From assembly GCA_965364245.1 (NCBI GenBank), contig CBDTVS010000001.1, positions 1-34,819 on the forward strand: 34,819 nucleotides of DNA. Reading direction: 5' to 3'. The DNA is from an uncultured Gammaproteobacteria bacterium (lineage in GTDB: Bacteria; Pseudomonadota; Gammaproteobacteria; QNFN01). Each line of letters opens with the position of its first letter. The first letter of the stretch is position 1. This document shows positions 4,957 through 34,819 of this stretch, piece by piece. The notes beneath the pieces were generated by a model, which ran no database searches, had not been told where the DNA came from, and saw only the letters and a program-made list of their open reading frames with translations. The position numbers and the translations under genes were made by a program.

Positions 4957-4983
4957 ACGTCAGTACATCACGCGTTGGGCGGC

Positions 4984-5029
4984 GCTCCTACAGGGGATCA
5001 CCATGTTGTAGGAGCGGCCCCCAGGCCGC
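4984..5029. repeat. REP-like extragenic palindromic element in a convergent intergenic region
   Basis: gctcctaca (4984-4992) pairs with tgtaggagc (5007-5015), a 9-bp stem. A second hairpin, gcggcc-ccca-ggccgc (5014-5029), follows immediately. The layout GTAGGAGC + GC hairpin + GATTC resembles Pseudomonas-type REP units (from memory, not searched). Confidence 0.35.
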
Positions 5030-5043
5030 GATTCGACAGACGC

Positions 5044-6270: not shown

Positions 6271-7064
6271 CACGCGGCGTCTCCTTGGCTCTCGACCCCG
6301 GCGAGGAAGTCGAGCAGTAGCGGGTTGAGTCGTTCGGGGCACTCGAGACCGAGCCAGTGACCGGTGCCTTCTAGCACCTCGAGGCGCGCGCCGGGCAGCG
6401 CGTCGCACAGGCGGCGCATCCCCTCAAGCGGCGCCATCGGGTCCATGTCGCCACCGACCAGCAGCGCCGGCACGTGCAGCCCCGGCAGGCGCTCGAGCAC
6501 GTCGAAGGTGGCGAGCATGCCGAGCGCGGCGCGGTAGGTCGCCTCCGGCACCGCGGCGAGCGCGGCGTACGCCAGGTCGCGGTGCGCAGGGTCGACCGGT
6601 CCGGCGAACAGCCGCGGCAGCGCGTCGTCGGCGATGTCTGCCATGGCCCGGCCGGCGTCCAGCGGCGCCAGGCGCTCGGCGACGAATCGCTGCTGCCAAC
6701 TCCCGCCCGGCGGGCCGAAGCGGCCGCTCGCCGCGAGCAGCACCAGCGAGCGCACCCGTTCGGGGTGGGCGAGGGCAAACTCCTGCGCGACCATGGCGCC
6801 CAGCGAGTGACCGACGAGGTGCGCAGCGTCGAGACCGTGCGCGTCGAGCAGGGCGGCCAGCGCGTCGCTGACCGCGGCGAAGGTCATCTCCGGCAGCGGG
6901 GCCGAGCGGCCGTAGCCGGGCATCTCCCAGGCCAACACGCGGTGGCGAGCGGAGAGGGCGTCGAGCTGCGGCCGCCACGATTCGGCGTTGCCGCCGAGGC
7001 CGTGCAGCAGCACGACCGCGGTCCCGTGGCTGCCCGCGCGCAGCGCGAACGGCACGTCGTTCAC
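6270..7064 (-). CDS. Alpha/beta-fold hydrolase
   Basis: Listed ORF 6270..7568 trimmed to the GTG at 7064. That start overlaps the upstream gene's stop (GTGA, 7064-7061). HGLGGN oxyanion motif, GHSLGA nucleophile elbow, C-terminal GTGHW. Confidence 0.9.
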   Translation of the reverse strand: MNDVPFALRAGSHGTAVVLLHGLGGNAESWRPQLDALSARHRVLAWEMPGYGRSAPLPEMTFAAVSDALAALLDAHGLDAAHLVGHSLGAMVAQEFALAHPERVRSLVLLAASGRFGPPGGSWQQRFVAERLAPLDAGRAMADIADDALPRLFAGPVDPAHRDLAYAALAAVPEATYRAALGMLATFDVLERLPGLHVPALLVGGDMDPMAPLEGMRRLCDALPGARLEVLEGTGHWLGLECPERLNPLLLDFLAGVESQGDAA

Positions 7065-8107
7065 GCGAGCTCGCCCTGCAGTTTGCCGTTGACCACGATC
7101 ATCTCGTCGTCGAGGCTGACGCTGCAGCCGCGCATCGGCAGGTCGAAGTGGCCGGCGGTGTGGCGTCCGGCGGTCTCGTTGGCGCCGGTCGAGTAGAGGA
7201 AGTTGCCGGCGAACGCGCGCAGCTCGGTGCCGTTGGTGTCGGCCTTGTCGTAGAAGGCGAGCGCCTCCCAGCGCGCGGCCGGGTTCATGCCCCAGCCGAC
7301 GTGCGACACGGCATAGGCGTCGCGATCGTCCCATGCGGCGATGTAGCTGCGGAACAGCTCGGCGTCGAGGCCGTCGCCGTCGATGCCGATGATGTAGTCG
7401 TCGAGGATCTCGAGCCGCACCGGGCTCTCGACGTAGCGCTTGAAGGTGAGGTTGACGTCGCCCGGCGCGAGCACCAGCGTGCCGCGCACGCTGCCCTGCT
7501 CGGGGAAACAGAGGCAGAGCCCGGCCGGCCAGTGCGCGACCTGCCCCGGGCGGTCGGCGTAGCCCCATGCGGCACCGAGGGGTGCCGACGAGACGTCGAT
7601 GACGAGATCGGTGCCGGCCGGCGACGTGACCTGCATGACGTTCGCGGCCTTGAGCTTGCGCAACCCGAGCTTGACCTTGTCGGTCAGCTCCGGATCGGGC
7701 AGCAGCCGTTCAAGCGCATCGGGGTGCTCGTTGCTGACCATCAGCACCCGCGCGCCGTCGGCCAGCACGCGCGGCAGCTCGGCCGCGTGCAGCAGACCCT
7801 CGAGGGTCAGGTCGACGACCAGTTCGCTCGCGGCCAGCGCCGCGATCGCCGCGTCCTGGCCGGCCAGCGCCTGGCTCGCGCCGGTGGAGCGGACCGGAAC
7901 CGGGGCGGTCTGGCGTGGGGTCGGGACTGTGACCCGGCACCAGTTGGCGCCGAGACGCTCGAGGGCGAGTTCGGCGAGCACGACGTTGAGGTCACGCGAC
8001 TGGGTCTCGGCGAGCAGCGCGACGCGCGTGCCGGGTTCGACCTTGCTCAGTTCGAACACCCTGGTGAAGGTGTCGATCCACTTGCCTTCGATGCGGTCGC
8101 TGGACAT
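7061..8107 (-). CDS. NicX-like protein (2,5-dihydroxypyridine 5,6-dioxygenase / M29 aminopeptidase-T-fold family)
   Basis: 348 aa, close to the roughly 350 aa I recall for NicX. The family call is from memory of NicX-like sequences (SHVGWGMNP, TAGHFDLPMRG near the C-terminus) and was not searched. Confidence 0.65.
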   Translation of the reverse strand: MSSDRIEGKWIDTFTRVFELSKVEPGTRVALLAETQSRDLNVVLAELALERLGANWCRVTVPTPRQTAPVPVRSTGASQALAGQDAAIAALAASELVVDLTLEGLLHAAELPRVLADGARVLMVSNEHPDALERLLPDPELTDKVKLGLRKLKAANVMQVTSPAGTDLVIDVSSAPLGAAWGYADRPGQVAHWPAGLCLCFPEQGSVRGTLVLAPGDVNLTFKRYVESPVRLEILDDYIIGIDGDGLDAELFRSYIAAWDDRDAYAVSHVGWGMNPAARWEALAFYDKADTNGTELRAFAGNFLYSTGANETAGRHTAGHFDLPMRGCSVSLDDEMIVVNGKLQGELA

Positions 8108-8202: not shown

Positions 8203-10332
8203 TCAGCGCCTCATCAACGCCTTGACGCGCATCTGCAGCTCTTCTGGTGTGAAGGGTTTATGCAGGTAGTCGCTCACCCCGTAGCTTTCGAGCAGTTCGC
8301 TGGTCTCGGTGTCGTTTTCCCTGAGTAATAACAGGAACGGCAGGCCGGCCCAGGTGAAGGACGCGCGCAGCTGTCGCAGTAACGGCCTGGTCTCTACTCC
8401 GGGCATGTCCACGTCGAGGACCAGCAGGCTGATGTTGCTCTCGCGTTGCAATACGTCGATCGCCTCATCGTGACTGGTCGCCACCTGCAGCTTCAGGCCG
8501 ATGTTATCTAGAGTCTCACGCAGGCTCTCCGCGTCGTCGGGACTCCCGGCCAGGGTAAGAACGTCTGGGAGATCGGTCTTGCGGACACGCGTATCCGTCG
8601 CCATCGGTGGTAACGAGGTGATCGCGTGATCGTGGGCGAGACACAACTCACGCCAGAAGCGCCCGCCCAGCACGCGTGACGCCTCGTCGGGCGTGGTGGC
8701 CCCGGAAACGATCCAGTCCGAGGTCAGCGCGGTCATCGACCGCCCGGTACCGGAGATCGCCTCGCGGAGTGTGGCCAAATCGGTGTGGCCGTTGACCAGC
8801 ACCTCGCGCAGTTCGTCGCCAACCTCGATGATCTCGGCTATCGGAAGCCGTCCCTGATAGCCGGTGTAGTCGCACTCCGGACAGCCGGTGGCCAATGCCC
8901 CGACCGACGCTCCGGTGATCTCTGCGAACAGCAGCGAGGCGTCATCCAGATTCTCGTTAGCTTTGCGCTTGCAGGCAGGGCAGAGCTTTCGCAGCAGACG
9001 TTGCGCACTGACGCCGATCACGCTGTCGGCAACCAGGGCCGCCGGCACGTCCAGGTCGAGAAGACGTGGGATCGCGGTCAGAGCGTCGTTGGTGTGCAGC
9101 GTTGACAGCACCAGGTGGCCGGTCAGTGCGGCCTGGACCGCGATGTCGGCCGTTTCCGCGTCGCGGATCTCGCCGACCAGGACGACGTCGGGATCCTGGC
9201 GCAGGATCGAACGCAGGGCGCTCGCGAACGTCAGACCGGCTGCAGGATTCACCTCGACCTGCGAGATGCCGACGATCTCCTGTTCCACCGGGTTTTCGAT
9301 GGTGATGATGTTGATGCCCGTCTGGTTCAGACGATCGAGGAGTGCATAGAGCGTCGTGGTCTTGCCCGAGCCGGTCGGTCCGGTAACCAGGAAGATGCCG
9401 GAGGTGTGCTGGATGATGCGCAGCATCGCGGCCAATTCGGCCGGTGGAAATTCGAGACCCTCCAGTGTCACGCCCTCACCCTGTTCATGCAGGCGTGCGA
9501 CCAGTCGTTCACCACCGCGGCAGGGCAGGGTCGAGATGCGCAATTCGATTTCGCGGCCCTGGTAGGTCGTTGCGAGTTGCCCGTCCTGCGGCTTGCGGTC
9601 GTTGCTCGGGTCCATGCCGCTAACGGCCTTGATCTGGCGTACCAGGGCATGGAACACGGCGGAGGGCAGGGTGGCGATACGCTGTAGAACCCCGTCGACC
9701 CGGCAGCGGATCACGCCGCCACCGGCGAACGGCTGCACGTGGACGTCGGAAGCGCCACGCTCGACCCCGAGCCGCAGAATCTGCCTTCCGAGCACGTCTG
9801 CTGCGTTCTCCTTATCGTCTGCCGCGGGTGCCGTCTGATCCTCCATATCCAGGATGAGCAGGCGCTCGGTCTGCTTGCGCAGCGCACGGCTGTAGTTGGC
9901 CGTAATGAAGTTGTCGATGGACACCGGCGCGGCCAGATGGGTGACGATGTTTCGCGCAGAGGCTGCCCTGAGCTGTTCCAGCGCTTCCTCGTTGAACGGG
10001 TTGCTGATGGCGACGATCAGGCTGTTGCCGTCCTCGGCGATGGGCAGAGCGTGGTACTTGCGCGCCATCGATTCCGGTACGAGGCGTGTGACGAACGGTT
10101 TCGCGCTATCCAAGTCGGCGTGGGGAATGCCGTAGTGGTTGGCGACCGCCTCCGTGAGTTCGTCGTCGGTGATCTTCAGGATGTGGGTCAGCTGGTGCCA
10201 CGCCTCCTGGGCGTTCTGGCCCAGGTGGACGCCATAGAGTGCCGTGTGCTGATCGGGAAACGTCTCCTGAACGGCGAGACGCAGCCAGCGCAGGCTCTCG
10301 CGTGATTCGGGTTGTTGATCTTCCGTGTTCAC
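8203..10332 (-). CDS. GspE/PilB-family type II secretion / type IV pilus assembly ATPase fused to a C-terminal response-regulator receiver (REC) domain
   Basis: 709 aa; the GTG start forms GTGA with the upstream stop. Motifs present:
- T2SSE_N-like region
- Walker A GPTGSGKTTT
- Walker B DPDVVLVGEIRD
- His box GHLVLSTLHTND
- Tetracysteine CPAC...CPEC
The last ~125 aa (about 8206-8580) read as REC: SPDD, LLVLDVDMPG, DYLHKPF. Confidence 0.9.
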   Translation of the reverse strand: MNTEDQQPESRESLRWLRLAVQETFPDQHTALYGVHLGQNAQEAWHQLTHILKITDDELTEAVANHYGIPHADLDSAKPFVTRLVPESMARKYHALPIAEDGNSLIVAISNPFNEEALEQLRAASARNIVTHLAAPVSIDNFITANYSRALRKQTERLLILDMEDQTAPAADDKENAADVLGRQILRLGVERGASDVHVQPFAGGGVIRCRVDGVLQRIATLPSAVFHALVRQIKAVSGMDPSNDRKPQDGQLATTYQGREIELRISTLPCRGGERLVARLHEQGEGVTLEGLEFPPAELAAMLRIIQHTSGIFLVTGPTGSGKTTTLYALLDRLNQTGINIITIENPVEQEIVGISQVEVNPAAGLTFASALRSILRQDPDVVLVGEIRDAETADIAVQAALTGHLVLSTLHTNDALTAIPRLLDLDVPAALVADSVIGVSAQRLLRKLCPACKRKANENLDDASLLFAEITGASVGALATGCPECDYTGYQGRLPIAEIIEVGDELREVLVNGHTDLATLREAISGTGRSMTALTSDWIVSGATTPDEASRVLGGRFWRELCLAHDHAITSLPPMATDTRVRKTDLPDVLTLAGSPDDAESLRETLDNIGLKLQVATSHDEAIDVLQRESNISLLVLDVDMPGVETRPLLRQLRASFTWAGLPFLLLLRENDTETSELLESYGVSDYLHKPFTPEELQMRVKALMRR

Positions 10333-10769
10333 CGCGGGAGGACTTCGACGGGGCCTGGACCTGACGCGTCGGCCTGCAGTCGGACCAGGCTGTCGTGATA
10401 GGTGGTCTCGAGGGTGTAGTCCGTGTCGCCGTGCGAATAGGTCACCCAGCCGTTGAGGAAATCGATGGGCAGGGTGTCGGGGAGTTCGCCGGTCTGCTTG
10501 CGGTACATCTCGATGTCTTCGGCCGTGTGGCTGAGGATGCCAGCGATCTGCTCGACGGTCTCGCCGCTGTCATGCGGTGCGAACCACGCGCTGAAATGAT
10601 CGCGCTCCGCGTAGACGGCCAGCACCAGCGCAACCCAGACGGTGAGGGTCAGCGGCCACCTGGACCCCACAGGCTTGGCGCTGCTCGCGAGCTTTGCGCG
10701 TCGTTCCCAGGAGTCGACCTCGTTCTGGGCCGCGGAGATGGTGCTGTTCAGGTCTTGATGTTGTGCCAT
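10329..10769 (-). CDS. Small bitopic membrane protein of unknown function (146 aa)
   Basis: ORF 10329..10865 trimmed to the ATG at 10769, which is preceded by aggaac. Single TM WPLTLTVWVALVLAVYA, with about 90 aa predicted outside. It sits 14 nt after the pilin-like gene and is coupled to the ATPase gene. I recognise no family. Confidence 0.6.
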   Translation of the reverse strand: MAQHQDLNSTISAAQNEVDSWERRAKLASSAKPVGSRWPLTLTVWVALVLAVYAERDHFSAWFAPHDSGETVEQIAGILSHTAEDIEMYRKQTGELPDTLPIDFLNGWVTYSHGDTDYTLETTYHDSLVRLQADASGPGPVEVLPR

Positions 10770-10783
10770 GACGTGTTCCTCGA

Positions 10784-11905
10784 TCAGTGTGGGTAGCGGT
10801 CGCACTGCTTGAGCAGGCCCCAGGCATGGCCGTGGGGGTGACCGGCGAGGACATGCGCTACGCAATCGTTGTACTGCTGCCGAGAGGACGCCTGGGTGCC
10901 GGTATTGCTAGCGCCAGAGCCTGAGCTGGTGCCAGCTGGCTGGGTTACGACAGGCTGTTGCACGACAGGTTGCTGCACGGGAGGCTGTATCGGTGTCTGC
11001 ACTGCTGCAACGCAGGCCAAGGGGTTGGAGGTGCTGCGTACCTCGCCGGGACCGCAAGCGTTAGCACAGACGTCGAAAGCGCTTCCGCTCGGACTGGAAC
11101 CCGCGGGGATGGTGACCTTGACCTGACCCGCTGCACAGCTCTGAGGCTGCTGTGGCTGGGGTGCTGTCTGCGATTGTTTTTCGCACGACAGTGGATTGGA
11201 AGTGCTGCGAACCTCGCCGGGGCCACAAGCGTTGGCGCATACGTCGAAAGCGCTTCCGCTGGGACTGGAACCTGCGGGAATAGTGATCTTGACCTGACCC
11301 GCTGCACAGCTCTGAGGCTGCTGTGGCTGGGGGAGTGCCTGTGGTTGCGGTTTGCTCGATACGGTGCTGGGCTGGACCGCTGCCGGGGGTTGAGTCGCGG
11401 TCGCGTGACTGGCATGCCGAGCCATGGCATCGAGCAGCGGGACGACCATGGCTTTCGGCTCGAGGACCCAGGCGTAGGTGCTGTGCGGAAGGGCATGGGC
11501 GACCGCCTTGAGGTGGCGCGACTGGGTCGCGTCTCGCGCGACCAGCATCAGATAGGGGATGTCCTTGCCATCGAACGGGCCGTAATGGGTCGAGCTCTGG
11601 ATCAGATACTCATCCAGATAGTCGAACTGGAGCAACTCCGGTCCTATGGGGAACGAGGTGAGCTCCGGAGGGATCTCGCCGACCTTGCCGGCAGAGAATT
11701 TTGGAATCGCGCCCCTGGTAGCGAGTTCGGAGTGGAAGACCGTGCGCAGCGTGTCGATCGTCGTCAGCACCTGCGCGACGCGAGCCCGGGTCTGGTAGTC
11801 GTTGTAGAGTGGCACCGCGACGGCCACGAGGATGCCGAGTACCGCAATGGTCATCATCAGTTCGACCAGCGTGAATCCTGATGCGGGTTTTCCGTTGGTG
11901 TCCAT
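10784..11905 (-). CDS. Modular type IV pilin-like protein: prepilin N-terminal methylation domain plus a long Cys-rich repeat extension
   Basis: The leader MDTNGKPASG is followed by FTLVELMMTIAVLGILVAVAVPLY, the class III signal with G-1/F+1/E+5. At 373 aa it is more than twice normal pilin size. The C-terminal half has PQ-rich linkers and two 57-aa four-Cys modules. Confidence 0.85.
   Translation of the reverse strand: MDTNGKPASGFTLVELMMTIAVLGILVAVAVPLYNDYQTRARVAQVLTTIDTLRTVFHSELATRGAIPKFSAGKVGEIPPELTSFPIGPELLQFDYLDEYLIQSSTHYGPFDGKDIPYLMLVARDATQSRHLKAVAHALPHSTYAWVLEPKAMVVPLLDAMARHASHATATQPPAAVQPSTVSSKPQPQALPQPQQPQSCAAGQVKITIPAGSSPSGSAFDVCANACGPGEVRSTSNPLSCEKQSQTAPQPQQPQSCAAGQVKVTIPAGSSPSGSAFDVCANACGPGEVRSTSNPLACVAAVQTPIQPPVQQPVVQQPVVTQPAGTSSGSGASNTGTQASSRQQYNDCVAHVLAGHPHGHAWGLLKQCDRYPH
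11021..11332. repeat. In-frame tandem duplication (period 171 bp, 57 codons) inside the pilin-like gene
   Basis: 11021-11161 aligns with 11192-11332. A perfect 45-nt core lies at 11117-11161 and 11288-11332. The encoded unit is PQPQQPQSCAAGQVK[IV]TIPAGSSPSGSAFDVCANACGPGEVRSTSNPL[SA]C, present twice. Confidence 0.9.
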
Positions 11906-11937
11906 ATCCGCGCGTCACTCCGAAGGCTGTTATTTGC

Positions 11938-11953
11938 CGCACTCTAGGGTCCA
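11938..11953 (-). promoter_or_regulatory. Sigma-54-like -24/-12 candidate (TGGACC-N5-GTGCG) upstream of the pilin-like gene
   Basis: The minus strand reads TGGACCCTAGAGTGCG, with GG-N10-GC spacing against the consensus TGGCAC-N5-TTGCW. It lies about 33 nt upstream of the ATG at 11905. Found by eye only, with two deviations from consensus. Confidence 0.25.
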
Positions 11954-12074
11954 GAGTGGGGCCTGGTGATTATTCGATATGGACTGGTTATACCTTCCTT
12001 TCGGGGCAGAGGGTATGTCCTCGCTCAATTGGCCAAGCCTGGACCATGGCCCATCTATCGGGGCCGATCTCTCA

Positions 12075-12476
12075 TCAGATTCCGTGATGCTGCGGATCTT
12101 CAGGCAGCGTCGGATCGACCGTATCGGCACCAGCATCCATACCGGCATCCAGGTTGTCGTCCGGCAAGACGTTCTCCGACTGCGCGTCAGGCGCATCGTC
12201 CAGCGCCGGGTCTGGTGGCATGACGTGCTCCACGGGTTGCACATTGGCCGGGTCCACCCCCGCGGCGACGAGGTAGTCGTCGAGCGGGGAGGGGGGTGAC
12301 TTGTCAGCCGCGTCGGATGTCCCGGTCTGGTGCGTCGTGTCCGCAAACTGCATGTAATCGGCAACGGCGTCGCCCGGGTCGGACCCAGAGTCGGTTGCAC
12401 CTGCCTGATCGTCGAACGCGGTCTCGTGCGCACCCTGGGAGTTGTCATCCACGGGTGGTGTCAGATCGCCCACGGC
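12075..12476 (-). pseudogene. Orphan, diverged copy of the giant adhesin's C-terminal 133-codon acidic tail (gene remnant or stand-alone tail ORF)
   Basis: Gapless hand alignment of 133 aa to the last 133 aa of the 17442..31907 product gives 76 identities. Conserved islands are AVGDL, DYMQFADTT, SPLxDYLVAAGV and DPQHHG[IV]-stop. An in-frame stop lies at 12531-12533, the only start is GTG at 12473, and I see no Shine-Dalgarno. Confidence 0.6.
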
Positions 12477-12642
12477 GCCGGCGTGTGAAGGTGGAGTCGC
12501 GACCCGCCAGCGAGCTGGGACTAGCCCTTGTCATACCCTCAGCAGACCACCCGAGCACAGGCAGTCAGGGCATCCTCACGCTCTAATGGCTTCACCCATC
12601 CCGCACGCTGACATGTGCCCCACCCGTGGCCGAGTAGCTCAC

Positions 12643-14544
12643 TCAGCCACCAACATGAGCGTTTTGTGGCAGCACCAGATTCACGCCGTTTGGCGTTATC
12701 ACGTCGAAAAGTGACAGGAACCGCTTGGCGTCGGCTCGGTCTCCATCGATGGTGATCGACTCATGAAGCTGCCCTGTACCGATCGTCTGAAGTATCGCTG
12801 CCTTCGAGCCGCGAATCGTCACATCGGCCGCCATCAGCGGACCGTCGGTGAATGCTGCCACTTTGTTTCGGATGGTGTAGCCGGAAGTCTCGTCCGTATC
12901 GGTGGTCACGAATTGGACACTGATTTTCTCGCCAGCCGCGCGCTCAGCATTGAGGCGCACGCTCATCGTGCTGAGGATCTTGTTGGTCGGCAATACCGCG
13001 ACAATTGCCGGGTCCGCGAAATTCCAAGGCGTGGTGCGATCGATTGTGCCATCGAGCTCCGCGGCGTTCGAGAGTCCAAAGTTGCGCCAATAGATATTGG
13101 TCTGGTGGTGAGCCCACGAACGGAGTGCCTCCGACTTGAGGTTGCGCGCATCCATGTCACTCGGCTCGGAACGTGTCAGGTGCGTCAGGAGTTCTGCCGC
13201 CCAGCCGTAGTTATTGGCATCCACGGCTGCCCGAGCCCGATCCATGATGGCGTCCCGACCGCCGAGTGCCTCGACGTACTGATCCGCGAGATCGTTCATG
13301 CCGGGCCGGGCAAGTTGCGTCGCGTCACCTTCCCACCAACCGATGTAGCCGTTGTAGATGTTGCGTACGGAGTGGGCGACGGTACCGTAGTACTCCACGA
13401 GCCAAGGGTCACTCGCGAAAGGTTCGGGAAGCACGACTTTCTCGGCGAGTTGATCACGCTTGTAGCCCTGGTTGATCCAGTAAATCGTCTGATCGTGAAC
13501 GTACTGAATAGCGTCTCGGTAGTTCTGGATGCGCTCGACGATGAAGTCATTACCGACCCAGGAGCGCATGTGAGAACCCGAGTAGGATTTGGCTTTCTGC
13601 GCATACCATAGAAGCACATTGACACCGTTCATCCACTTCGCCACGTCACGGTAAGACGTGCCGCGGAGTGTGTAGAGGTTTGGAAAGGTCTCGCCCTGAA
13701 TCGTCTCGGAGCCATGCAGATGGTTGTACTCGGGAAAATAGATCGCGATCTCGTCAGTGTCCGCGTCGCCGTAGGCGTGGAACACCTCCATTTCGACACC
13801 GCCGATGTTGTACGTTCTGGGCTGCTCGTAGGGCACCTCCGAGGTTGGGAGGTAGAACGAGATTGGCCCTGCGCTAAAGGCTGGCCCCAGCCCGTTGTGC
13901 ACCGGACCTTCCGGGCCGGGTTTCAGATAGCCTGCAGCATAGGCTGTGCGCTGCGTCAGGATGTTGCCAACAACCCCAACGTCATTGACCAGATTGTCGA
14001 CGAAGTTCTCCGAAGCGATGATCTGCGTCCGCCCTGATGCCACATCCTCTGGCGTGACGCCAAAACCGGCCGAGCCAAAGGCATGGTCAGGGTGTCGGTG
14101 GGTGTAGAGAATCGCTACGATCGGCATCGTCGCGATCTCTGGCTTGACCTCGGCGAGAGTATCCAGAACATCTTTCGCCGCGTCGTCGTCGGACCCGGGG
14201 TCGATCACGATCAACCCGTTCTCGGTCACCGCGATTAAGGGCGAGGTAAGCTGGAATCCAAAGGCGTGGTAGAGCTTGTCCGGCACGATCTCGTAGATCG
14301 TCTTTGGCATCATCCGCGCAAAGGCGGTCATGGCCGGATGGATCGTATCTGCTTGTTCTGTATATGCGAGGTTTTCGCCCTGCCAGATCACAGGAGCGAG
14401 GTGCTTCAAAACGTCGGGATTGTTGAAGACGCTGGCATCCGTGCTACGCACAGGGCTGTTGAGTGGACCATATCTGGTCTGCGCGCTGGCATTGGATGCG
14501 AGCGTTAGTGAAATGAAAATTGTTAGCAGCATGTATCTTGGCAT
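12643..14544 (-). CDS. Secreted alkyl/aryl-sulfatase-like metallo-beta-lactamase-fold enzyme (SdsA1/BDS1 family)
   Basis: ORF 12643..14715 trimmed to the ATG at 14544. Signal peptide MPRYMLLTIFISLTLASNASAQ. MBL motif YTHRHPDHAFGS. The length (633 aa) and C-terminal region match alkyl sulfatases with dimerisation and SCP2-like domains (from memory). Confidence 0.8.
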   Translation of the reverse strand: MPRYMLLTIFISLTLASNASAQTRYGPLNSPVRSTDASVFNNPDVLKHLAPVIWQGENLAYTEQADTIHPAMTAFARMMPKTIYEIVPDKLYHAFGFQLTSPLIAVTENGLIVIDPGSDDDAAKDVLDTLAEVKPEIATMPIVAILYTHRHPDHAFGSAGFGVTPEDVASGRTQIIASENFVDNLVNDVGVVGNILTQRTAYAAGYLKPGPEGPVHNGLGPAFSAGPISFYLPTSEVPYEQPRTYNIGGVEMEVFHAYGDADTDEIAIYFPEYNHLHGSETIQGETFPNLYTLRGTSYRDVAKWMNGVNVLLWYAQKAKSYSGSHMRSWVGNDFIVERIQNYRDAIQYVHDQTIYWINQGYKRDQLAEKVVLPEPFASDPWLVEYYGTVAHSVRNIYNGYIGWWEGDATQLARPGMNDLADQYVEALGGRDAIMDRARAAVDANNYGWAAELLTHLTRSEPSDMDARNLKSEALRSWAHHQTNIYWRNFGLSNAAELDGTIDRTTPWNFADPAIVAVLPTNKILSTMSVRLNAERAAGEKISVQFVTTDTDETSGYTIRNKVAAFTDGPLMAADVTIRGSKAAILQTIGTGQLHESITIDGDRADAKRFLSLFDVITPNGVNLVLPQNAHVGG

Positions 14545-14773
14545 GGTCCGGAATCTCTTTAAATATCGGCCTTGAAAGGCTAGCAAAATTCGGCTTTCTG
14601 TTTTGATTTGCCTTATTACTTTCTGATGCAGATCAAGAGTCGCGGTAGCGATGACCTTGCGGTACGGAAGTCGCACTTGCAAGGTGAGATACTTGCCCTG
14701 TTCCGGCCAAACCACGAAGGTGCGTTTAACGACTGGCCATAGGCCGGACCTGAATTGGAATACTTAGCTGAAC

Positions 14774-17221
14774 ATGCCACTTCGGTTGAAAATCATACTG
14801 CTCGTAATCCTCCCAATTTGTGGGCTCTTCTTCCTGTTGAAGCTCTACGATTATTACCATTACGAGCGGCTCTCAGAGCGTGAGATAAAACAGAAGCTTC
14901 TGGAGCAATCGCAGAAGCACAGCAAAAGCGTTGACGCGATACTTCGTCAGGCGAGTTCTACCGCCACCAGCATGGCCGATTTCCTTTCCGTCACGGGTGG
15001 TGTCGTAAGTGAGGACGAACTCTACGAAGCATTGGAATTGAACCTGCTGAGAAATGACTTGGTGTACGGTTCCGCCGCCGCGTTTGTGCCGGGCTATTTC
15101 GAGGGGCGGAGGCGATTCAGCCCCTATGTCTACCGATCTGGATCGGCACTTCAAAGAATCGATATCGGTGCGAGCGCATACGACTACACCGAGCCCCAGT
15201 GGGAGTGGTTCGCCAAGCCTGTGGCAACCGGAAAGTTCGTCTGGAGCCGGCCCTATTTCGACGAGGGTGCCGGCAACATTCTGATGGTCACCTTCTCAGC
15301 CCCGGTTCGTGGACGTGGTGATGAGGTTATGGGCGTGGTCACCGTGGATCTGGATGTCACGAAGCTCCCCGAACTTGCGGCGATAGAGAGCACCGAAGGC
15401 GAGCATTTCATGCTCGTCGACCAATCCGGAATCATCATCTACGACTCCATAAGTGAGAATATTGGACTTGATTTCCTGGAGGTTGAGTATTTTTCCAACA
15501 TGCGATCGAGTGATCTCAAGTCGCTGCTTGGAGCTCCAGTACCTCGTCTGGCAGACATCGATTCTGTCGACCAGGGGGTCAGTTGGCTCGCCGTTTCCAA
15601 GGTTCCATCATCCGATTGGTTTTTCCTCGTATCCATGCGGGAAGAGAATGCGCTGGCAATACTTTTCTCCCAGCAGTTGAGGGTCATCGGCGTTGTTCTA
15701 TTCATATTGATGGTATTTGTCTTCGTCTCCTGGTTGCTGACGGGAAACATCATCAGGCCAATCAGAAAAATAGCTCTGGCAGCAGAGGACATCGCATCCG
15801 GAGATTATGGCGCGTCGTTGCCGCCCCCAACGAAAGATGAAATCGGCAGTCTCTCGGTTGCATTCGCTACGATGAGGGACCGGGTTCTTGAGCGTGAACA
15901 GGACCTCAGGGAGATCAACGAAACCCTGGAGCAGCGGATCGAAGAGCGGACTCGGCGACTTTCAGAAAGCGACCGTAATCTCCAGCTGACTCTCGACAAC
16001 ATGCCAGGCGCGCTCATCGTTACCGCGCCGGACCTGTCGATTCGTGTCCTTACATCCAATTTCAATGAGTACGTGAACCTACCGAAGGATTTTATCAGGG
16101 CGGGTGACAGTCACGAGAAGATCCTCCGCTACATGGCGATGAACGGATACTACGGGGAGGATGTGGACGTGGAGAAAGTGGTGCAGGAACGCATCCTCTC
16201 GATATTGAATCCGACAAGCGAGATTCTGTACGACCACATGCCCGACGGTCGGGTCAACGCAGTCACACGAAGGCGCTCGAAAGAAGGAGATGTCATCACC
16301 GTGGTCGTGGACGTGACCGAACAAAAGCAGCGTGAGACAGAGCTCGATGCTGCGAAAAGCAAGCTCGCCGAGAGAAATTCAGTTCTCGAGAATCTCTCAG
16401 GACAACTCGCAAAGTACCTGTCTCCGCAGATTTACGATGCGATATTCACCGGAAAGTCGGGCACTGACATCACAACTCAACGCAAGAAGCTGACGGTTTT
16501 CTTTTCCGATATCAAGGATTTCACATCAACGACGGAAGAGCTGGAACCTGAAGACATGACGTTCCTTCTCAACGACTACCTCACCAAAATGACCGATATC
16601 GCACTAGAGCATGGTGGGACGATCGACAAGTACAACGGCGATGCGATCATGGTGTTTTTCGGCGACCCCGACACGCGTGGCGTCAAGGAGGATGCCGTTG
16701 CAGCGGTCAACATGGCCATAGCGATGCAGCGGCGCATGGTGGACTTACGGGCGAAATGGACGGACATGGGCTACAGGACGCCCTTTCATATCCGCTGCGG
16801 GATCAACACCGGCTACTGCAATGTCGGTAATTTCGGCTCAGAACAAAGAATCGACTACACGATTATCGGCGGCCAGGTGAACCTAGCTGCTCGCCTGGAA
16901 TCAATTTGCGAACCGGACGGAATCACTATCGCTTACGAAACCTACACCCTCGTCAGAGATACGGTCGATGCGGAGCAGATCGAATCGATTCAGGTCAAGG
17001 GCATCAGGGATCCCGTGCAGCCCTACAAGATTTTGGGTGTCATGGAAAATTGGGACGCCTCCGAGCGCTACATCCGCAGCAACGACGTCACGGGGATGCG
17101 TCTTTGGGTCGATGTTACAAGGATATCGCCCAAGCAGCGCGATGCTTCGATTAAGCGTCTGGAAAGCGCCATCGAACGACTCAAGAATCTGGACATCGAG
17201 GCTGACGAAGGGAGCGCCTAG
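14774..17221 (+). CDS. Membrane sensor class III adenylate cyclase (TM - Cache-like periplasmic domain - TM - HAMP - coiled coil - PAS-like - CYCc)
   Basis: 815 aa. There is an N-terminal TM and a second TM, VIGVVLFILMVFVFVSWLL. HAMP: IRPIRKIALAAEDIASGDY...DEIGSLSVAFATM. Cyclase core: LTVFFSDIKDFTS, IDKYNGDAIMVFFG, DYTIIGGQVNLAARLES. The Lys (KYNGD) and Asp (DYT) at the specificity positions favour ATP. Confidence 0.9.
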   Translation: MPLRLKIILLVILPICGLFFLLKLYDYYHYERLSEREIKQKLLEQSQKHSKSVDAILRQASSTATSMADFLSVTGGVVSEDELYEALELNLLRNDLVYGSAAAFVPGYFEGRRRFSPYVYRSGSALQRIDIGASAYDYTEPQWEWFAKPVATGKFVWSRPYFDEGAGNILMVTFSAPVRGRGDEVMGVVTVDLDVTKLPELAAIESTEGEHFMLVDQSGIIIYDSISENIGLDFLEVEYFSNMRSSDLKSLLGAPVPRLADIDSVDQGVSWLAVSKVPSSDWFFLVSMREENALAILFSQQLRVIGVVLFILMVFVFVSWLLTGNIIRPIRKIALAAEDIASGDYGASLPPPTKDEIGSLSVAFATMRDRVLEREQDLREINETLEQRIEERTRRLSESDRNLQLTLDNMPGALIVTAPDLSIRVLTSNFNEYVNLPKDFIRAGDSHEKILRYMAMNGYYGEDVDVEKVVQERILSILNPTSEILYDHMPDGRVNAVTRRRSKEGDVITVVVDVTEQKQRETELDAAKSKLAERNSVLENLSGQLAKYLSPQIYDAIFTGKSGTDITTQRKKLTVFFSDIKDFTSTTEELEPEDMTFLLNDYLTKMTDIALEHGGTIDKYNGDAIMVFFGDPDTRGVKEDAVAAVNMAIAMQRRMVDLRAKWTDMGYRTPFHIRCGINTGYCNVGNFGSEQRIDYTIIGGQVNLAARLESICEPDGITIAYETYTLVRDTVDAEQIESIQVKGIRDPVQPYKILGVMENWDASERYIRSNDVTGMRLWVDVTRISPKQRDASIKRLESAIERLKNLDIEADEGSA

Positions 17222-17318
17222 TGATGGATGCATCGTTGCGTGATGTATCTATTTGGCTATAGAGATCAGTCCATCAGGTATTTAGAGTGGTGATTGAGAG
17301 GGACGGTTTAGTACTAAC

Positions 17319-17359
17319 GGCAGAGTTCTGCCCTTAGTTGGATACCAATTGACGGTATC
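17319..17359. terminator. Two short hairpins in the AT-rich 220-bp convergent spacer between the cyclase and the giant adhesin gene; weak bidirectional terminator candidates
   Basis: ggcag-agtt-ctgcc at 17319-17332 and gatacc-aattgac-ggtatc at 17341-17359. Stems are only 5-6 bp and there is no clear U-tract. Confidence 0.2.
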
Positions 17360-17441
17360 GCAAAAGCATGGAGGTTTCGATTTGTTGTTTGCGTATATCC
17401 TCACCTCACGATGGGCCCTAATTAATACGCTAGAGCAAGTG

Positions 17442-20400
17442 TTAGACGCCATGATGTTGCGGATCGTCTAGCAGTGAAGGATCAGCCACATCGCCCCCCG
17501 TATCTAAACCCTCATCGATCATATCTTCGGGAGATGTTGGCGCCGGTTGGGTATCGGGGACATCGACAAGTGTAGGGTCGGGAGAAGTGACCGATTCGAC
17601 CTGCTGCAAATCAGTAGGCTCTACGCCTGCCGCCACGAGATAGTCGGCCAGCGGGGAAGGCACGGCCCCATCCGCTGCAGCTGGTGAGTCGCCCTGCTGA
17701 GTTGTGTCCGCGAACTGCATGTAATCGTCAACGGCGTGATCGGAATCCGTACCCGAGCCCGTGGCGACCATGGTGTCGTCGTAGCTGGTATCGTGCACTT
17801 CCTGGGAGGTGTCGTCCGTGGGTGGCGAGAGATCGCCCACGGCGCCGGCCTGGTCGTCTGGCGCCGGTTCGCCCGTGTAGGCGGTGAACATCATGTCCGG
17901 GTGTTCCACGCCGACGACGCTGCCGTCGTCTATCGGCAGCAGTTCGCCGACACTGGCCGATCGGCCGTCGGGCGCGATGGTCACCTCCTGCTGCGCAAGT
18001 GCGAAGTAACCGCTCGGCAACGACGCGATGGCCACCAGTGGCGTTGCCCCATCGGGCAGCGCATGGCCGGTCGCGTCGAGGGTCCAGTGGCCGTCGGCGT
18101 CGGCAGTGGTCGTGCCGAGCTCCAGGTGGCTTGAGTCCATGGTCTGCACCTTGACCGTCGCGCCCGGTGCCGAGCTGCCGCTGATCAGGATCGTCGGGTC
18201 GCTAGTCGTGAAATCGGCCTGTGTGCCGGTATCCGGTGTGATGCCGGTGATACGCACGCCAGGAGCAACCTCGATGATCGCCGTTGCATCGACAACGTGA
18301 CCTTTGCCGTCGGTCAGCTGGTAGCTGATTGCCCGTACGCCCTGCACGCCATGCGCGGGGGTGAAGACGAAGCCACCGTGCCCGTCGTCGGTGACCTGCC
18401 CGTAGCGCGAGGAGAAGGAACCCGCGACGACGCTGAGGGCGTCGCCATCGGCGTCGGACGCGCCGCTCAGCAGCTTGTCCATCGAAAGCTTTGTGCCAGT
18501 CTCCTCGACCGCGACACCAAGATTGACCAAGCTCGAGGCGACCGGTGCGTGGTCTGGGTGGAGGACGTCGACTGTCGCGAAGGTGTCGACCGTGTGGCGG
18601 CCGTCGGTGAGCTGGTAGGCGATGTGCACGTCGTCGCCGCTGAAGCCGGGCTCCGGGTGGAACACGAAGCCAGACTGGGCGTCGCCGGTGATGGTGCCGT
18701 GCGGCGAACTCAGCGACCCCGGAACCAGGGTCAACGCGTCGCCGTCAGCATCGGTCGCGCCGGCCAGCAGTGTGTTGATGTCGAGCGGTAGCGGCGCGCC
18801 GGCCTCCACCTCACCAAGGTCGGTGTCAGACGCCGCGATCGGTACCGTGTCGACGACGAAGCTAGGGGAGGTGAGGTGGGCGCCGGTGGTCTGGCCGCGC
18901 ATCTGTCCGCCGACGTTGAACACGATGTAGAGCTCCTTGCCCTGCAGGTTCAGCAGATCGTTTTCGTCGAATGTCACCTCGAAGTGGCCGTTCGCCTCCA
19001 TTTGCACCTGGCCGCCGCCGGCCATGCCGCTGCCCTCACTTACCATGACTGCGGAGGTCAGCTGCAGCTGGCTCAGCTCGGGGCCGGTCACCTGGCCAAC
19101 GGCAACCAGCCCATGGCCGAGACGCGCGGCATCGAGGTCGCCGAGATCGGCGATCGGGTGAGTGTGCGCGGTGTCATCGGCGTAGTAGTAGCTGACGCCC
19201 TCGATCGCCATACGCGCCGGCGGGGTGATATCGAGTGTGGCGTCGGCCGTGACGCTCGTGGTGCCGTCCGTGACCGTGACTTTCACCGGAATGTCGTCGT
19301 GGGTCACGCCAGAAACCGGGGTCAAGGCCCAGCTGTCACCCGTATGGGTGATCACGCCGTACTGCGGATCGACCCAGACGCTGCTGATCGCTAGCTGGTC
19401 GGCCGCGGTGTCGACGTCGGTCGCATGCACGGTCTGCAGCAGTTCTGCGCTGGTGAAGGTCCTGGTCAGACCCTGTTCGACCGTGCCGAGGTCGCCTGCC
19501 TGGACGTTTGGCGCATCGTCGGTCCCGGCGATAGTCACGTGAAGCTGGTGGGCGGTGCCGTCGGCGCTGTTTACTGTGATGGTGTCGGTGAGTGTTTCGC
19601 CTGCGGCGAGTGCGTCGACCGCCTGATGGCTGTCGTCGAGTCGGTAGACCCAGGTCCCACCGACACTGATCGAGAAGTGACCGTAACCCTGGTCGCTCTG
19701 CGCGTTGAACAGCGGTGTGAACAGCTCCTCGTTGCTGCCGTCGAGGTCGCTGATGCCGAGGCGGCCGGTCGCTAGTCCGCTGACGTCCTCGGTGACGGTC
19801 TCATGGCTGGTGTCTGTGATCACCGCCGCGTGGCTGACCGCGACGGTGTCGAAGTCGGCATGGGTCGCGACCCGCGCGCCCTGCGGATCGACGACGTCAT
19901 AGGTTAGACGCACCGGACCCTCGTAGCCCGCCTCGGGAGTGTAGAGGTAACCACCGGCCGGGTCGGCGGTGACGGTGCCGTGAGAGACCTCCAGGTTCTG
20001 CGCGCTGTGGCCCATCGAGAGCAGCGCGCGCGCCACCTGGGTCGAGGGGCCAGTGCTGACCGAGGCGAGGTTCTCGACTGAGAGCGCGTCACCGTCGGGG
20101 TCGGATGCATGCGCCAGGAGTTGCGCCTCGCTGATGTGCAGCGGCATCGCCGCGTCGGCATCGGTCAGCGTGACGGGAGCGCTGACCACCGGCGCGTCGT
20201 TGGTCCCGGTGACGGTTACGACCAGGTGCGCGGTAGCGGTGTTGCCCGCCGCGTCGGTGATCTCGTAGGTGAATCGTTCCTGGTGTGACTCGCCGGCCGC
20301 GAGCACCTGTGCGCGGGCGTCGAGGGTGTATGTATAGCCACCGTCGGCTTGCAGCGCGAGGGTGCCGTAGGCGCCCTGCTGGTCAGCGGTGGAGGTCACC

Positions 20401-31983: not shown

Positions 31984-33324
31984 TCACCGTTCATGGAAGG
32001 CGGTGTCGGCGGTGATGAACACCGGTTTGAGGATGAACTGCAGCACCGACTTGCGACCAGTCGCGATGTCCACCTCGCCGGTCATGCCCGGGATCAGGCG
32101 GCGCTCTTGGCTGCCGACGTAGGACGTGGCCAGGCTGACACGGACCTTGTAGTAGGGGGCGCCGGTCTCTGGCATCTTGTAGGTGGTCGGGGAAACCTGG
32201 GTCACGATGCCCTCGACGGCACCGAAGCGGCTGTAGTCGAAGGCGTCGAATTTGACGAGGGCCTGTTGCCCCGGGCGCACGAATCCGATGTCGCGCGGCG
32301 CGACCTGGGCCTCCATCAGGATTTCGCCGTCGACTGGGACGATCTGCGCGATCGTCCCGCCGGGCGGGACCACTGCGCCCTCGCGTGTTTCGGGCAGGCT
32401 GATCACCACGCCGTCGATCGGCGCGACCAGCAGTCTACGACCCTCGCGGGCGTTGAGCGCAGTCAGGTCCGCCTCCAGCTCGCGCATCTGTTCGACGATC
32501 TGACTGCGTTCGGTGCTTGCGTCCTTGGTGAATTCGGCGCGGATGCGCTCGAGGTCGGACTCGATGGACTCGATGGCGTTGCGTAGCGATTCGGCGCGTG
32601 AGCGGGCATCGGAACGGCGCAGTTCGAGCTCGGAGACCTGTTGACGCTCCTCGCTGAGCTGCAGGCGGCTGATCAGGCCCTTGCTGACACCCTCCTCGAC
32701 GCGCTTGAGCTTCGCTCGCGCCTCGGCCAGTTCGCGGTCCAGCAGGCGCAATTCACCCTCGACACCTTTCAGCGTTGCCTGTTGCTGCTCGACCTCGTTG
32801 CGCTTTGCCGCCAGCGCCGCATCGCGAGCGGAGACCTGCGCACGATAGGTTGCGCGCGCCTCGGCCACCATGCGCGGTCGCTCGGAGAAGGGGATGAAGT
32901 CGGGTTCGCGCTCCTCCACGAACGCACCTAGCCGTTCCAGCTCAATAGCGAAGCTGGCCATACGTGTCTGCGCCTGGGCAAGATCGCGCTCGAGGTCCGA
33001 GACGACGAAGTCGGCGATGTTCTGACCGCGGGTGACGAATTCGCCATCCTCGACGTAGAGCACGCCGACGGTGCCGCCCTCTTCGGTCTGCAGGCTCTGC
33101 ACGTTGCCCGCCGGCTCGATCTCACCGCGCGCGCGTGCAAGTTCGTCGACCTGTGCCAACGCGGCCCAGACCAGGAACGTGACGACCAGCACGACGATGC
33201 CGAGTAGGGCACGGCGCAGGGCGCGGGTCTGCCCCGATTCGTCGAGCTGCGCCTCGATGCGTTCGAGTTGCCGGTCGTCTCCGGCCGTTGCGGTCACGAT
33301 GTCGGGTGCTGAGGCTTCGTTCAT
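31984..33324 (-). CDS. HlyD-family type I secretion membrane fusion (periplasmic adaptor) protein
   Basis: ORF 31984..33429 trimmed to the ATG at 33324 (MNEASAPD...). There is one N-terminal TM (LLGIVVLVVTFLVWAALA), a long coiled-coil region, and the C-terminal motif LIPGMTGEVDIATGRKSVLQFILKPV typical of HlyD adaptors. Confidence 0.9.
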   Translation of the reverse strand: MNEASAPDIVTATAGDDRQLERIEAQLDESGQTRALRRALLGIVVLVVTFLVWAALAQVDELARARGEIEPAGNVQSLQTEEGGTVGVLYVEDGEFVTRGQNIADFVVSDLERDLAQAQTRMASFAIELERLGAFVEEREPDFIPFSERPRMVAEARATYRAQVSARDAALAAKRNEVEQQQATLKGVEGELRLLDRELAEARAKLKRVEEGVSKGLISRLQLSEERQQVSELELRRSDARSRAESLRNAIESIESDLERIRAEFTKDASTERSQIVEQMRELEADLTALNAREGRRLLVAPIDGVVISLPETREGAVVPPGGTIAQIVPVDGEILMEAQVAPRDIGFVRPGQQALVKFDAFDYSRFGAVEGIVTQVSPTTYKMPETGAPYYKVRVSLATSYVGSQERRLIPGMTGEVDIATGRKSVLQFILKPVFITADTAFHER

Positions 33325-33340
33325 TGAAGGTACTCGTCTA

Positions 33341-34819
33341 TCAGGCCTGCAGTTGGTTGTCGGGGGGTGCGGCAACCGGTCCGGCATGAACCAGATTGCC
33401 CTCGTTGAGCACCACGACCTGGTCGGCACGCTGGATTAGATCGGTGCGGTGCGTGGCGAGGATCACGGTGCTTTTGCCACGCAACCCGGCGAGGAGTTCG
33501 AGGAACGCTGTCTCGAGCACCGGATCACGATCGGCGAGTGGGTCGTCGAGGAGCAGCAGACCCGGTTCGTCGACCAGCGCCGCCGCCATGTTGACCATGA
33601 AGCGGGCTCGCCGATTAGCCCGGTCGTGGCGCCAGGGTTCGAGCCGCGTGGCCAGTGCCGCCTCGGCGCTGTCGGCGCCGATCAGCTGCCACCAGCCAAA
33701 GCCGCCGACTCGAGCCAATGCGAGCACGATCGCATCGTCGCTGGCGTTCGGGCGGCGCAGGCGGACGAACTCGCAGACAGTCAGCGGCAATCCGTGGTCG
33801 ATCTGTGGCACGTAGCCAAGCCAGGCGCGGTAGTCCGCTGGATCGAACTGGCGGATGTCGCGACCACCGACCAGCACGCGTCCATTCTGGGGCTGGCGCA
33901 CCGAAGCGAGCAGTTCGAGCAGCGTGCTCTTGCCCGCGCCATTGGGCCCGATGACGGCCACGGTCTGACCGCACTCGATCTCAAAGCTGACCCCGTTGAC
34001 CGCCGGCTCACGCTCGGCGCTGTGACGGTAGAACAGGCGGTCAGCGGTCAGCTTGGCCTGCAGAGCTTCGACCGGAGAGGTGGCAAGCGGATTCTGGTGC
34101 TCGCCCTGGGTCGCCATCAATCGCTCGAACTGGCGGCGTGAGGCGACGACCTGACGCGTGCGTGCGTGCGCTGCGAACAGTTGTTGGGCTGGCGTGGTGA
34201 CGCGCCAGATAAGCATCATCGTTGCGATCAGCCCGCCGGTAGTCATGCCACCCTCGAGTACCAATGCGATGCCCACCGCCATGGTGCAGAGCACCGTGAG
34301 CATTGCCAGTGACTGGCCGAGCGTCTGCACGAGGCCATTAGCCAGCGCATGATCCCGGTTGGCCTTGGCTGACTGCACGACAAGGTTGGCGAGGTGCTGG
34401 CGGAGCAGTGCCGAACCGCGCACGCCGCGCAGGCTGCGCAGGCGCAGCGTCAGTGCGGAGGTTGTGTCATTGAGCTCGCGTGAGACCCGTCCTGCCTTGG
34501 CCGAGCGCGTCTCGACGAGCCGTGAGGTCGGCAGCGACACGACGTAGAAGAGCAGCAAAGCGGTCAGTGGCACCACGGCGATCCAACCGCCGAGCAGCGC
34601 GATGACCAGCAGGAAAATCAGCACGAAGGGGTAATCGAGATTGACGATCCCGGCCGACCCACCGAACAGCTGGCGCACACCCTCAGCGCCGCGCAGCCGG
34701 CTGAGATTGGCGTCGACTCCACTGCGCAGGGTGCTCTCAAGCGGCAGCCGAAGTGTCTTGATGATGGCGTTGCGCGTGATGTGTGAGCCGGCCCAAGCTG
34801 ACAGATCGGCCAGCGCGCG
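33341..34819 (-). CDS. Type I secretion ABC transporter permease/ATPase (partial; the N-terminus lies beyond the window) with a non-canonical nucleotide-binding domain
   Basis: The track ORF starts at the GTG at 34678. My translation shows the frame stays open to the window edge (RALADLSAWAGSHITRNAIIKTLRLPLESTLRSGVDANLSRLRGAEGV-RQLFGG...). The TM-domain half is followed by an NBD with Walker A GPNGAGKST, Q-loop GYVPQ, Walker B LLLLDD and H-loop ATHR. No LSGGQ signature is present. Confidence 0.9.
   Translation of the reverse strand, partial: RALADLSAWAGSHITRNAIIKTLRLPLESTLRSGVDANLSRLRGAEGVRQLFGGSAGIVNLDYPFVLIFLLVIALLGGWIAVVPLTALLLFYVVSLPTSRLVETRSAKAGRVSRELNDTTSALTLRLRSLRGVRGSALLRQHLANLVVQSAKANRDHALANGLVQTLGQSLAMLTVLCTMAVGIALVLEGGMTTGGLIATMMLIWRVTTPAQQLFAAHARTRQVVASRRQFERLMATQGEHQNPLATSPVEALQAKLTADRLFYRHSAEREPAVNGVSFEIECGQTVAVIGPNGAGKSTLLELLASVRQPQNGRVLVGGRDIRQFDPADYRAWLGYVPQIDHGLPLTVCEFVRLRRPNASDDAIVLALARVGGFGWWQLIGADSAEAALATRLEPWRHDRANRRARFMVNMAAALVDEPGLLLLDDPLADRDPVLETAFLELLAGLRGKSTVILATHRTDLIQRADQVVVLNEGNLVHAGPVAAPPDNQLQA

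Follow-up and report, generated by a model that had tools for sequence, protein, structure and literature searches.

The 34,819-nt window analysed here, positions 1 to 34,819 of contig CBDTVS010000001.1 (assembly GCA_965364245.1) from an uncultured gammaproteobacterium, carries the gene for a giant adhesin of 4821 residues beside genes of a type I secretion system. The last 137 or so codons of this gene (the attached tail) recur further downstream in the same window as a start-less reading frame without an adhesin body (the orphan tail), and genes for a sensor nucleotide cyclase and an alkyl-sulfatase-like enzyme lie between the two copies. The explanation that we favour, with a probability of roughly 0.6, is that the 3' end of the adhesin gene was replaced by foreign DNA, with the crossover in the 5' part of the tail, which is conserved, and that the orphan is the former resident tail. 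The locus is clearly the scar of a recombination event and does not represent a new kind of system.

The two tails

The attached and orphan tails align without gaps, with 56% identity at the amino-acid level and 65% at the nucleotide level (42% at third codon positions). The homology opens abruptly with a 20-nt identical run, GCCGGCGCCGTGGGCGATCT (encoding AGAVGDL; at 17850 in the attached and 12483 in the orphan copy), which is the longest run shared by the two tails, and it closes at the stop codons. The sequences outside the homology are unrelated between the copies on both sides. The best-matching stretch is 77 nt long with 79% identity and lies at the beginning of the homology (17776-17852 and 12409-12485). 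When the attached tail was searched against 5.8 billion proteins, a set in which giant proteins seem to be under-represented, the sole match was the orphan open reading frame (ORF), with an E value of 9e-33 that places the match far beyond chance.

The orphan is an open frame with zero indels relative to the attached tail, and every residue that is invariant in the tail family is retained. In-frame stop codons are present 16 codons upstream of the start of the homology, and neither a Shine–Dalgarno sequence nor a promoter-like site was found upstream of its GTG codon (12473). No third tail was detected in the window by a scan of all six frames with a hidden Markov model (HMM). Within the family the two tails are each other's nearest relatives (56% identity, compared with at most 39% to any other member), and this proximity fits a donor with a compatible adhesin.

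Composition and codon usage of the adhesin 3' end

The region from 12489 to 17762 has a GC content of 55%, compared with 68–70% in the flanks, and the GC content at third codon positions (GC3) is 0.55–0.69 there and 0.72–0.94 in the native genes. A composition step had been proposed in a sequence-only reading of the window from hand-counted 60-nt samples. On computation, the hand counts proved largely correct. The samples from the adhesin body were reproduced (68.3% for a counted 68% at 18001-18060 and 75.0% for 75% at 17821-17880), as were the values of 55–62% for the last 400 nt of the adhesin gene (60.2%) and of 57% for the sulfatase gene (56.8%). The spacer at 17222-17441, put at about 40%, has a computed value of 44.5%. 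The estimate of about 60% for the orphan tail was somewhat low (65.4%), and that for the cyclase gene, 45–50%, was too low (53.6%). A GC3 discontinuity, the absence of which would have refuted that reading, is present, GC3 dropping from 0.856 to 0.628. The step is thus real, but it does not coincide exactly with the start of the tail homology at about 17843, where it had been placed; it falls inside the tail, at about 17762 (17747-17834).

The GC3 of the attached tail (0.628) is close to those of the cyclase (0.66) and sulfatase (0.69) genes and far below that of the adhesin body (0.856; the whole gene has a GC content of 0.679 and a GC3 of 0.849); the orphan tail has a value of 0.745. Conditioned on its amino acids and on the codon usage of the body, the attached-tail GC3 deviates by z = -8, and it is lower than in any of 455 windows of 137 codons from the body, the lowest of which has 0.715. 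Its codon usage fits that of the cyclase (z = -0.4) and of the sulfatase (z = -1.3). It is the last ~100 codons of the tail that share the usage of these two genes. The log-likelihood ratio of body versus insert usage is -29.4; simulations gave -25 +/- 7.5 for a tail drawn from insert usage and +22 +/- 6 for one drawn from body usage. The GC3 of the last 100 adhesin codons differs from that of the rest of the gene by -0.306, and the corresponding differences in ten other window genes range from -0.10 to +0.07.

To locate the switch, a likelihood change-point test was applied with body usage trained on the first 4000 codons and with cyclase plus sulfatase usage as the alternative. The best position is 17762, with a 2-lnL support interval of 17747-17834 that overlaps the 77-nt stretch of 79% identity; the switch falls within or shortly past that stretch, roughly 20–35 codons into the tail and within its first third. 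The attached tail is chimeric: codons 1–35 have a GC3 of 0.86 and codons 36–137 a GC3 of 0.55. We infer that the change-point interval marks a recombination junction, situated where the 5' part of the tail is conserved.

In three other tail-bearing adhesins of the family, the GC3 of the tail is 0.05–0.09 below that of its own body. The offset of the orphan from the adhesin body of the window (-0.11) is near this pattern, whereas that of the attached tail (-0.23 overall and -0.31 in the last 100 codons) is outside it. The orphan GC3 is also in line with the neighbouring pilus genes. The low GC content of the pilus genes is a trait of the lineage rather than a sign of recent transfer and is also found in two related metagenome-assembled genomes (L014 and L015).

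The same data bear on the alternative that the tail was duplicated within this genome and diverged in place, the cyclase and sulfatase genes being inserted independently and the low GC3 of the attached tail being a local effect. The direct-repeat layout and the mutual proximity of the tails agree with such a duplication. However, the tails are separated by 0.31–0.35 nonsynonymous substitutions per site (dN) and by 0.9–1.5 synonymous substitutions per site (dS), which is saturated, with a dN/dS of about 0.2–0.4 and without indels or stop codons, so that a start-less orphan would have had to remain under protein-level selection for a long time. Further, the GC3 of codons 36–137 matches the cargo and is outside the range of native genes, and no other gene has a comparable terminal drop. 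Duplication in place is improbable on this evidence. The saturated synonymous sites, low dN/dS and lack of indels instead point to tails that diverged as functional coding sequence in separate lineages, with a recent inactivation of the orphan.

Related genomes

A contig from an independent assembly (L001; ENA ERZ23498549) is 99.7% identical to the window over 16.8 kb, with 50 single-nucleotide polymorphisms (SNPs) and no gaps, and has the same layout. The event is therefore older than the split of the two strains. The window is a metagenome contig with a composition shift at a repeat, and an assembler might have joined two organisms at the conserved tail. The identical arrangement in the second assembly excludes this, and misassembly was rejected as a candidate; in addition, the tails share no identical run of more than 20 nt, and two switches would be needed to regain the native flank. 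We consider an artefact to have next to no likelihood. The orphan tail has zero SNPs between the two contigs. Of the 50 SNPs, 26 are clustered in 240 nt (6490-6729) of an alpha/beta-hydrolase gene, a pattern that resembles a small recombination tract, and five fall within 150 nt just 5' of the tail boundary (17847-17994), two of these being non-synonymous.

L014 and L015 are metagenome-assembled genomes of related gammaproteobacteria. Their homologues of the GspE/PilB ATPase with a receiver domain (PilB-REC) have 78% (L014) and 69% (L015) amino-acid identity to that of the window, and NicX of L014 is 88% identical at the nucleotide level. Both keep the order pilin, 146-residue ORF, PilB-REC, with LysE upstream of the pilin gene and no tail or adhesin. 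Similarity to these genomes restarts just before the start of the pilin gene, a few tens of bases past the orphan stop codon. The adhesin block therefore ends with the orphan, which lies directly beyond the low-GC region, at the edge of that block. Before a 5.4-kb insertion, an adhesin gene would have had its 3' end at this position.

The sequence-only reading had suggested a comparison with homologous loci. The layout recurs in L001, but a locus that lacks 12.5–17.8 kb and in which the adhesin ends in the orphan-type tail was not found. L015 lacks the YscW/META, hydrolase and NicX genes (window 4100-8100; L015 11498-11681), so that PilB-REC adjoins an HD-domain gene, and L014 retains NicX. 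Within the lineage, gene content thus varies on either side of the pilus cluster.

A proposed replacement of the adhesin 3' end

In the proposed event, DNA of ~5.3 kb with a lower GC content would have come from an organism with a related adhesin. The incoming segment would have consisted of most of a homologous tail, the 220-nt spacer, the sensor cyclase gene, the alkyl-sulfatase-like gene and the 154-nt junction. The crossover would have occurred in the best-conserved first ~30 tail codons of the resident gene. The adhesin would have retained a complete in-frame tail and should remain secretable, and the resident tail would have been displaced 5.4 kb downstream as a start-less remnant beside the pilin gene. 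The main argument for displacement is that the truncation point of the orphan and the composition switch fall within ~30 codons of each other in a gene of 4821 codons.

The event may have been a single crossover of a circularised fragment, or it may have proceeded by homology-facilitated illegitimate recombination. After a single crossover of a circularised fragment the first codons of the orphan would be donor-derived. The GC3 of orphan codons 1–35 (0.69) and of its later codons (0.76) differ in the right direction, but the difference is not significant.

The displacement had been put forward in the sequence-only reading with the composition switch at the start of the tail homology. The chimeric 3' end, the cargo-like attached tail and the orphan at the edge of the block support it in part; the junction is inside the tail, and the resident origin of the orphan is putative.

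The tail family and orphan tails elsewhere

The tail belongs to a family of about 25 relatives, which were collected by an exhaustive profile search of 1.84 billion representatives together with a profile search of the 5.8-billion set. It is at the extreme C-terminus in every relative, and the family shares the motifs DYLQFAD, SPLDDYLAAAGVDP, LPPTEVL and a terminal DPQHHGV-COOH. No relatives of the tail were found in Pfam, NCBIfam or the PDB. Every member derives from a metagenome or a metagenome-assembled genome; the sources include Rhodoferax, Accumulibacter and uncultured Gammaproteobacteria. Where the context is visible, the tail terminates giant cadherin/VCBS proteins (L002 3704-4039, L003 851-1219 and L005 9986-10351), and a TolC-like gene adjoins it in L003, L005 and L010. 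A scan of GTDB genomes with the tail profile yielded no locus that could be confirmed, and the same scan of JGI metagenomes gave only L002 and L003, in which the tails are ordinary adhesin ends.

The tail is acidic, and AlphaFold2 predicts it, with low confidence (predicted local distance difference test score, pLDDT, of 61; predicted template-modelling score, pTM, of 0.20), to be mostly disordered with two short helices over two DYL motifs. Uncleaved C-terminal secretion signals are the established general picture for type I substrates. The adjoining ABC/HlyD or TolC-like genes, the C-terminal position and the predicted disorder suggest that the tail most likely carries such a signal.

Stand-alone tail ORFs without an adhesin body are also present in other loci (L004 6092-6607, L008 5676-6056, L010 978-1370, L012 2233-2625 and L013 3377-3769). 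That of L004 is solitary on a 122-kb contig, and that of L008 (Accumulibacter) is partial and fused to other sequence. In L010–L013 the tail follows kinase-like (HATPase_c) and PGAP1-like hydrolase genes and precedes PhdYeFM/ParE and a truncated TolC-like gene, an order that resembles the cargo-then-orphan layout of the window; these contigs stop short of any upstream adhesin. A different route to an orphan tail is seen in a Rhodoferax metagenome-assembled genome (L005/L006, 1-10354), where a giant cadherin adhesin is split by two insertion sequence (IS) elements (Transposase_mut and DDE_3) and the tail is left as a 117-residue ORF in front of a TolC-like gene. The strains of the P0076 orphan loci are nearly identical in SNP comparison.

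These loci bear on the possibility that the orphan of the window is the remnant of a different, earlier or paralogous adhesin that once lay beside the pilin gene and whose body was deleted or overwritten, with the chimeric 3' end as a separate event or the operon as a later arrival. Remnants of this family are evidently common, given the tails without a nearby adhesin in L004, L008 and L010–L013 and the IS-split adhesin of L005/L006. The codon usage of the orphan is not body-like, and L014 and L015 have no adhesin at this position, which indicates that the block was rearranged. However, a different adhesin would require a coincidence, namely that the 5' truncation of the orphan and the composition switch fell in the same ~30 of 4821 codons. 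Moreover, the far boundary of the low-GC block is exactly where the orphan sits, and no other family member is as close to either tail as they are to each other. We regard an origin from a different adhesin as unlikely, although it is the strongest of the alternatives.

The orphan may also be a maintained functional unit, either a small protein exported by a type I system or a silent cassette for swapping the adhesin C-terminus. Its frame is intact with all family-invariant residues kept, it has no SNPs between the two strains, and intact stand-alone tail ORFs occur in several unrelated loci, often beside TolC-like genes. However, expression from the GTG codon would have to proceed without a Shine–Dalgarno or promoter-like site and with in-frame stops upstream, and at 65% nucleotide identity with a longest identical run of 20 nt the tails are too divergent for routine homologous exchange. 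Some orphans elsewhere are degraded or fused (for example P0092 and P0093), and HMM searches favour the detection of intact copies. A functional orphan in the window therefore seems a slim prospect. For the family as a whole, it is conceivable, with little probability, that DPQHHGV-COOH tails are exchangeable cassettes that several lineages keep intact and start-less near type I or TolC-like genes and that replace the secretion or anchoring module of the adhesin by recombination at their 5' edge, or that the stand-alone copies are small exported peptides. If true, the cassettes would correspond, for type I secretion, to the orphan C-terminal modules known from polymorphic toxin loci. That intact orphan tails occur repeatedly in this family is the one thread that could lead further.

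Observations against displacement

Several observations weigh against displacement of a resident tail as the origin of the orphan. The codon usage of the orphan is intermediate and rejects the body model (z = -3.7; log-likelihood ratio of -13 compared with an expected +22), and its native status depends on the family offset, which comes from only three loci. The first tail codon is not the junction, which is placed slightly further into the tail. L014 and L015 do not carry the insert, yet they also lack the entire adhesin block, and L001, the one close strain, has the insert. No insert-free relative, with an adhesin ending in the orphan-type tail, was found in GTDB, in JGI or in exact-protein look-ups; the look-ups of the pilin, PilB-REC and the orphan ORF returned one sister contig only. 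Orphan tails elsewhere have arisen through IS insertion or adhesin loss, and that of the window could thus have a separate origin.

No integrase or transposase (Pfam), tRNA or flanking terminal repeat marks the insert; apart from the two tails, no repeat flanks it. No close homologue of the cyclase was found (the best match has 42% identity over 61% of the query), and matches on plasmids are at the domain level only, which leaves the donor untraceable. The secretion-signal role of the tail is putative, and neither RTX repeats (GGxGxD) nor HemolysinCabind matched the adhesin or its last 699 residues in Pfam and NCBIfam. As a single scar without an insert-free comparator, the locus has modest wider significance.

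Organisation of the locus

The features of the locus are collected in Table 1. The type I secretion operon is on the minus strand, in the order ABC transporter, HlyD adaptor, adhesin; the reading frame of the transporter is open to base 34819 and continues past the end of the window. No TolC-like gene is present within the window. The adhesin is composed of cadherin-like, Ig-like and VCBS repeats and is presumed to be the substrate of the adjoining type I secretion system. It is followed on its 3' side by the spacer, the cyclase gene, the sulfatase gene, the junction, the orphan tail, the pilin-like gene, a small ORF and the GspE/PilB ATPase gene.

Table 1. Features of the adhesin locus and its flanks (window coordinates).
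Feature	Position	Strand	Remarks
ABC transporter of type I secretion, LssB type	33341..34819	-	Pfam ABC_tran and ABC_membrane; NCBIfam type_I_sec_LssB, E = 6e-72
HlyD-family type I secretion adaptor	31984..33429	-	NCBIfam TIGR01843, 308 bits (cut-off 208); Pfam HlyD_3
Giant adhesin, 4821 aa	17442..31907	-	Pfam Cadherin_4 x27, Big_9 x14, Cadherin_5 x6, Big_13; VCBS_repeat
Attached tail, last 136-137 adhesin codons and stop	17442..17852	-	Tail-family member; AGAVGDL...DPQHHGV, then stop
Codon-usage change point	17747..17834	-	Best position 17762; range is the 2-lnL support interval
Spacer, 220 nt, between convergent adhesin and cyclase genes	17222..17441		44.5% GC; no Rfam match
Cargo gene 1, sensor nucleotide cyclase, 815 aa	14774..17221	+	dCache, HAMP, PAS and class III cyclase (Pfam); GC 0.536, GC3 0.66
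Cargo gene 2, alkyl-sulfatase-like enzyme of the metallo-beta-lactamase fold, 633 aa from ATG	12643..14544	-	Signal peptide; Pfam Lactamase_B, Alkyl_sulf_dimr, Alkyl_sulf_C; GC 0.57, GC3 0.69
Junction, 154 nt, sulfatase stop to orphan tail	12489..12642		In-frame stops; no similarity to the adhesin
Orphan tail, start-less copy of the last 137 adhesin codons	12075..12488	-	Aligned part 12075..12485; intact frame, no adhesin body
Edge of adhesin block	11906..12074		Similarity to L014 and L015 restarts just upstream of the pilin start
Pilin-like gene, native flank	10784-11905	-	Order kept in L014 and L015
146/178-aa ORF, native flank	within 8203..11905	-	Between pilin-like and PilB genes; order kept in L014 and L015
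GspE/PilB ATPase with receiver domain, native flank	8203-10332	-	Order kept in L014 and L015

The call of the 633-residue sulfatase gene was taken from L001. In the window the open frame runs on to 14715; the listed ORF continues 57 codons upstream of the likely ATG, and the signal peptide follows that ATG. The divergent sulfatase and cyclase genes are separated by a 229-nt intergenic region (14545-14773; roughly 48–50% GC), which is presumably a shared promoter region imported with the cargo. Neither an Rfam family nor a tRNA was detected, and promoter- or terminator-like sites were not in excess.

The conserved three-gene pilus cluster (window 8203-11905; L014 3494-7232; L015 8071-11498) consists of the pilin-like gene, the 146/178-residue ORF and the GspE/PilB ATPase gene. 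The pilin-like protein has an N-terminal methylation motif, and the ATPase has an MshEN domain and a C-terminal receiver domain; no PilC or PilD genes were found near the cluster. The pilin-like gene contains a 171-nt tandem duplication (10983-11324; 82% identity) that encodes a Cys-containing repeat.

Comparison with known systems

To judge from its gene context and repeat architecture, the adhesin is a member of the giant type I-secreted class. As in LapA, SiiE, FrhA and VCBS-type adhesins, ABC and HlyD genes adjoin a gene that encodes thousands of residues of cadherin, Ig and VCBS repeats, and the protein ends in an acidic unstructured C-terminal region with a presumed uncleaved signal. It differs from these adhesins in lacking detectable RTX nonapeptide repeats before the tail and in having a DPQHHGV-COOH tail, a type that is undescribed. 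The small unannotated tail family could help to identify one class of substrates of type I secretion among uncultured Proteobacteria, and its remnants would mark past rearrangements of adhesin loci.

Homology-facilitated illegitimate recombination and Campbell-type single crossover are general routes by which foreign DNA is acquired. The locus resembles their products in having one short homologous anchor (77 nt, 79% identity), non-homologous cargo and neither an integrase or transposase gene nor a tRNA site. Either of the two routes may have been taken.

A close parallel for the displacement is found in the CdiA-CT/CdiI loci of contact-dependent growth inhibition (CDI) and in Rhs-CT loci, in which C-terminal displacement leaves orphan modules. 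In these loci the variable C-terminal toxin is marked off by a motif such as VENN or PxxxxDPxGL, and the cognate immunity gene lies immediately downstream. In both cases the 3' end of a very large secreted-protein gene appears to be swapped for incoming DNA, the junction is at a short conserved stretch that opens the variable end, and a start-less 3' remnant lies downstream; here, identity to the main gene is highest in the stretch with which the orphan opens. The differences are substantial. The tails of the window are homologous (56% amino-acid identity), whereas the CDI and Rhs C-termini are unrelated toxins, and neither tail has a toxin or pre-toxin domain in Pfam or NCBIfam, each being instead an acidic, disordered, family-conserved module. 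There is no immunity gene: the attached tail is followed by the spacer and the convergent cyclase gene, and the orphan by the pilin gene. The cargo is a convergent cyclase and a sulfatase, secretion is by a type I rather than a type V or VI system, and there is one remnant rather than an array. A toxin/immunity system of the CDI/Rhs type was rejected for lack of a toxin domain and an immunity gene.

When the literature was searched for orphan C-terminal remnants of adhesins secreted by type I systems, the only results were papers on CDI and on unrelated subjects. To our knowledge, retained displaced 3' ends have so far been linked mainly to polymorphic toxin genes. The locus suggests that horizontal transfer can likewise exchange the 3' end of the gene for a giant adhesin secreted by a type I system, in an exchange that would have kept an intact tail, the presumed secretion signal, while bringing unrelated cargo genes into the locus.

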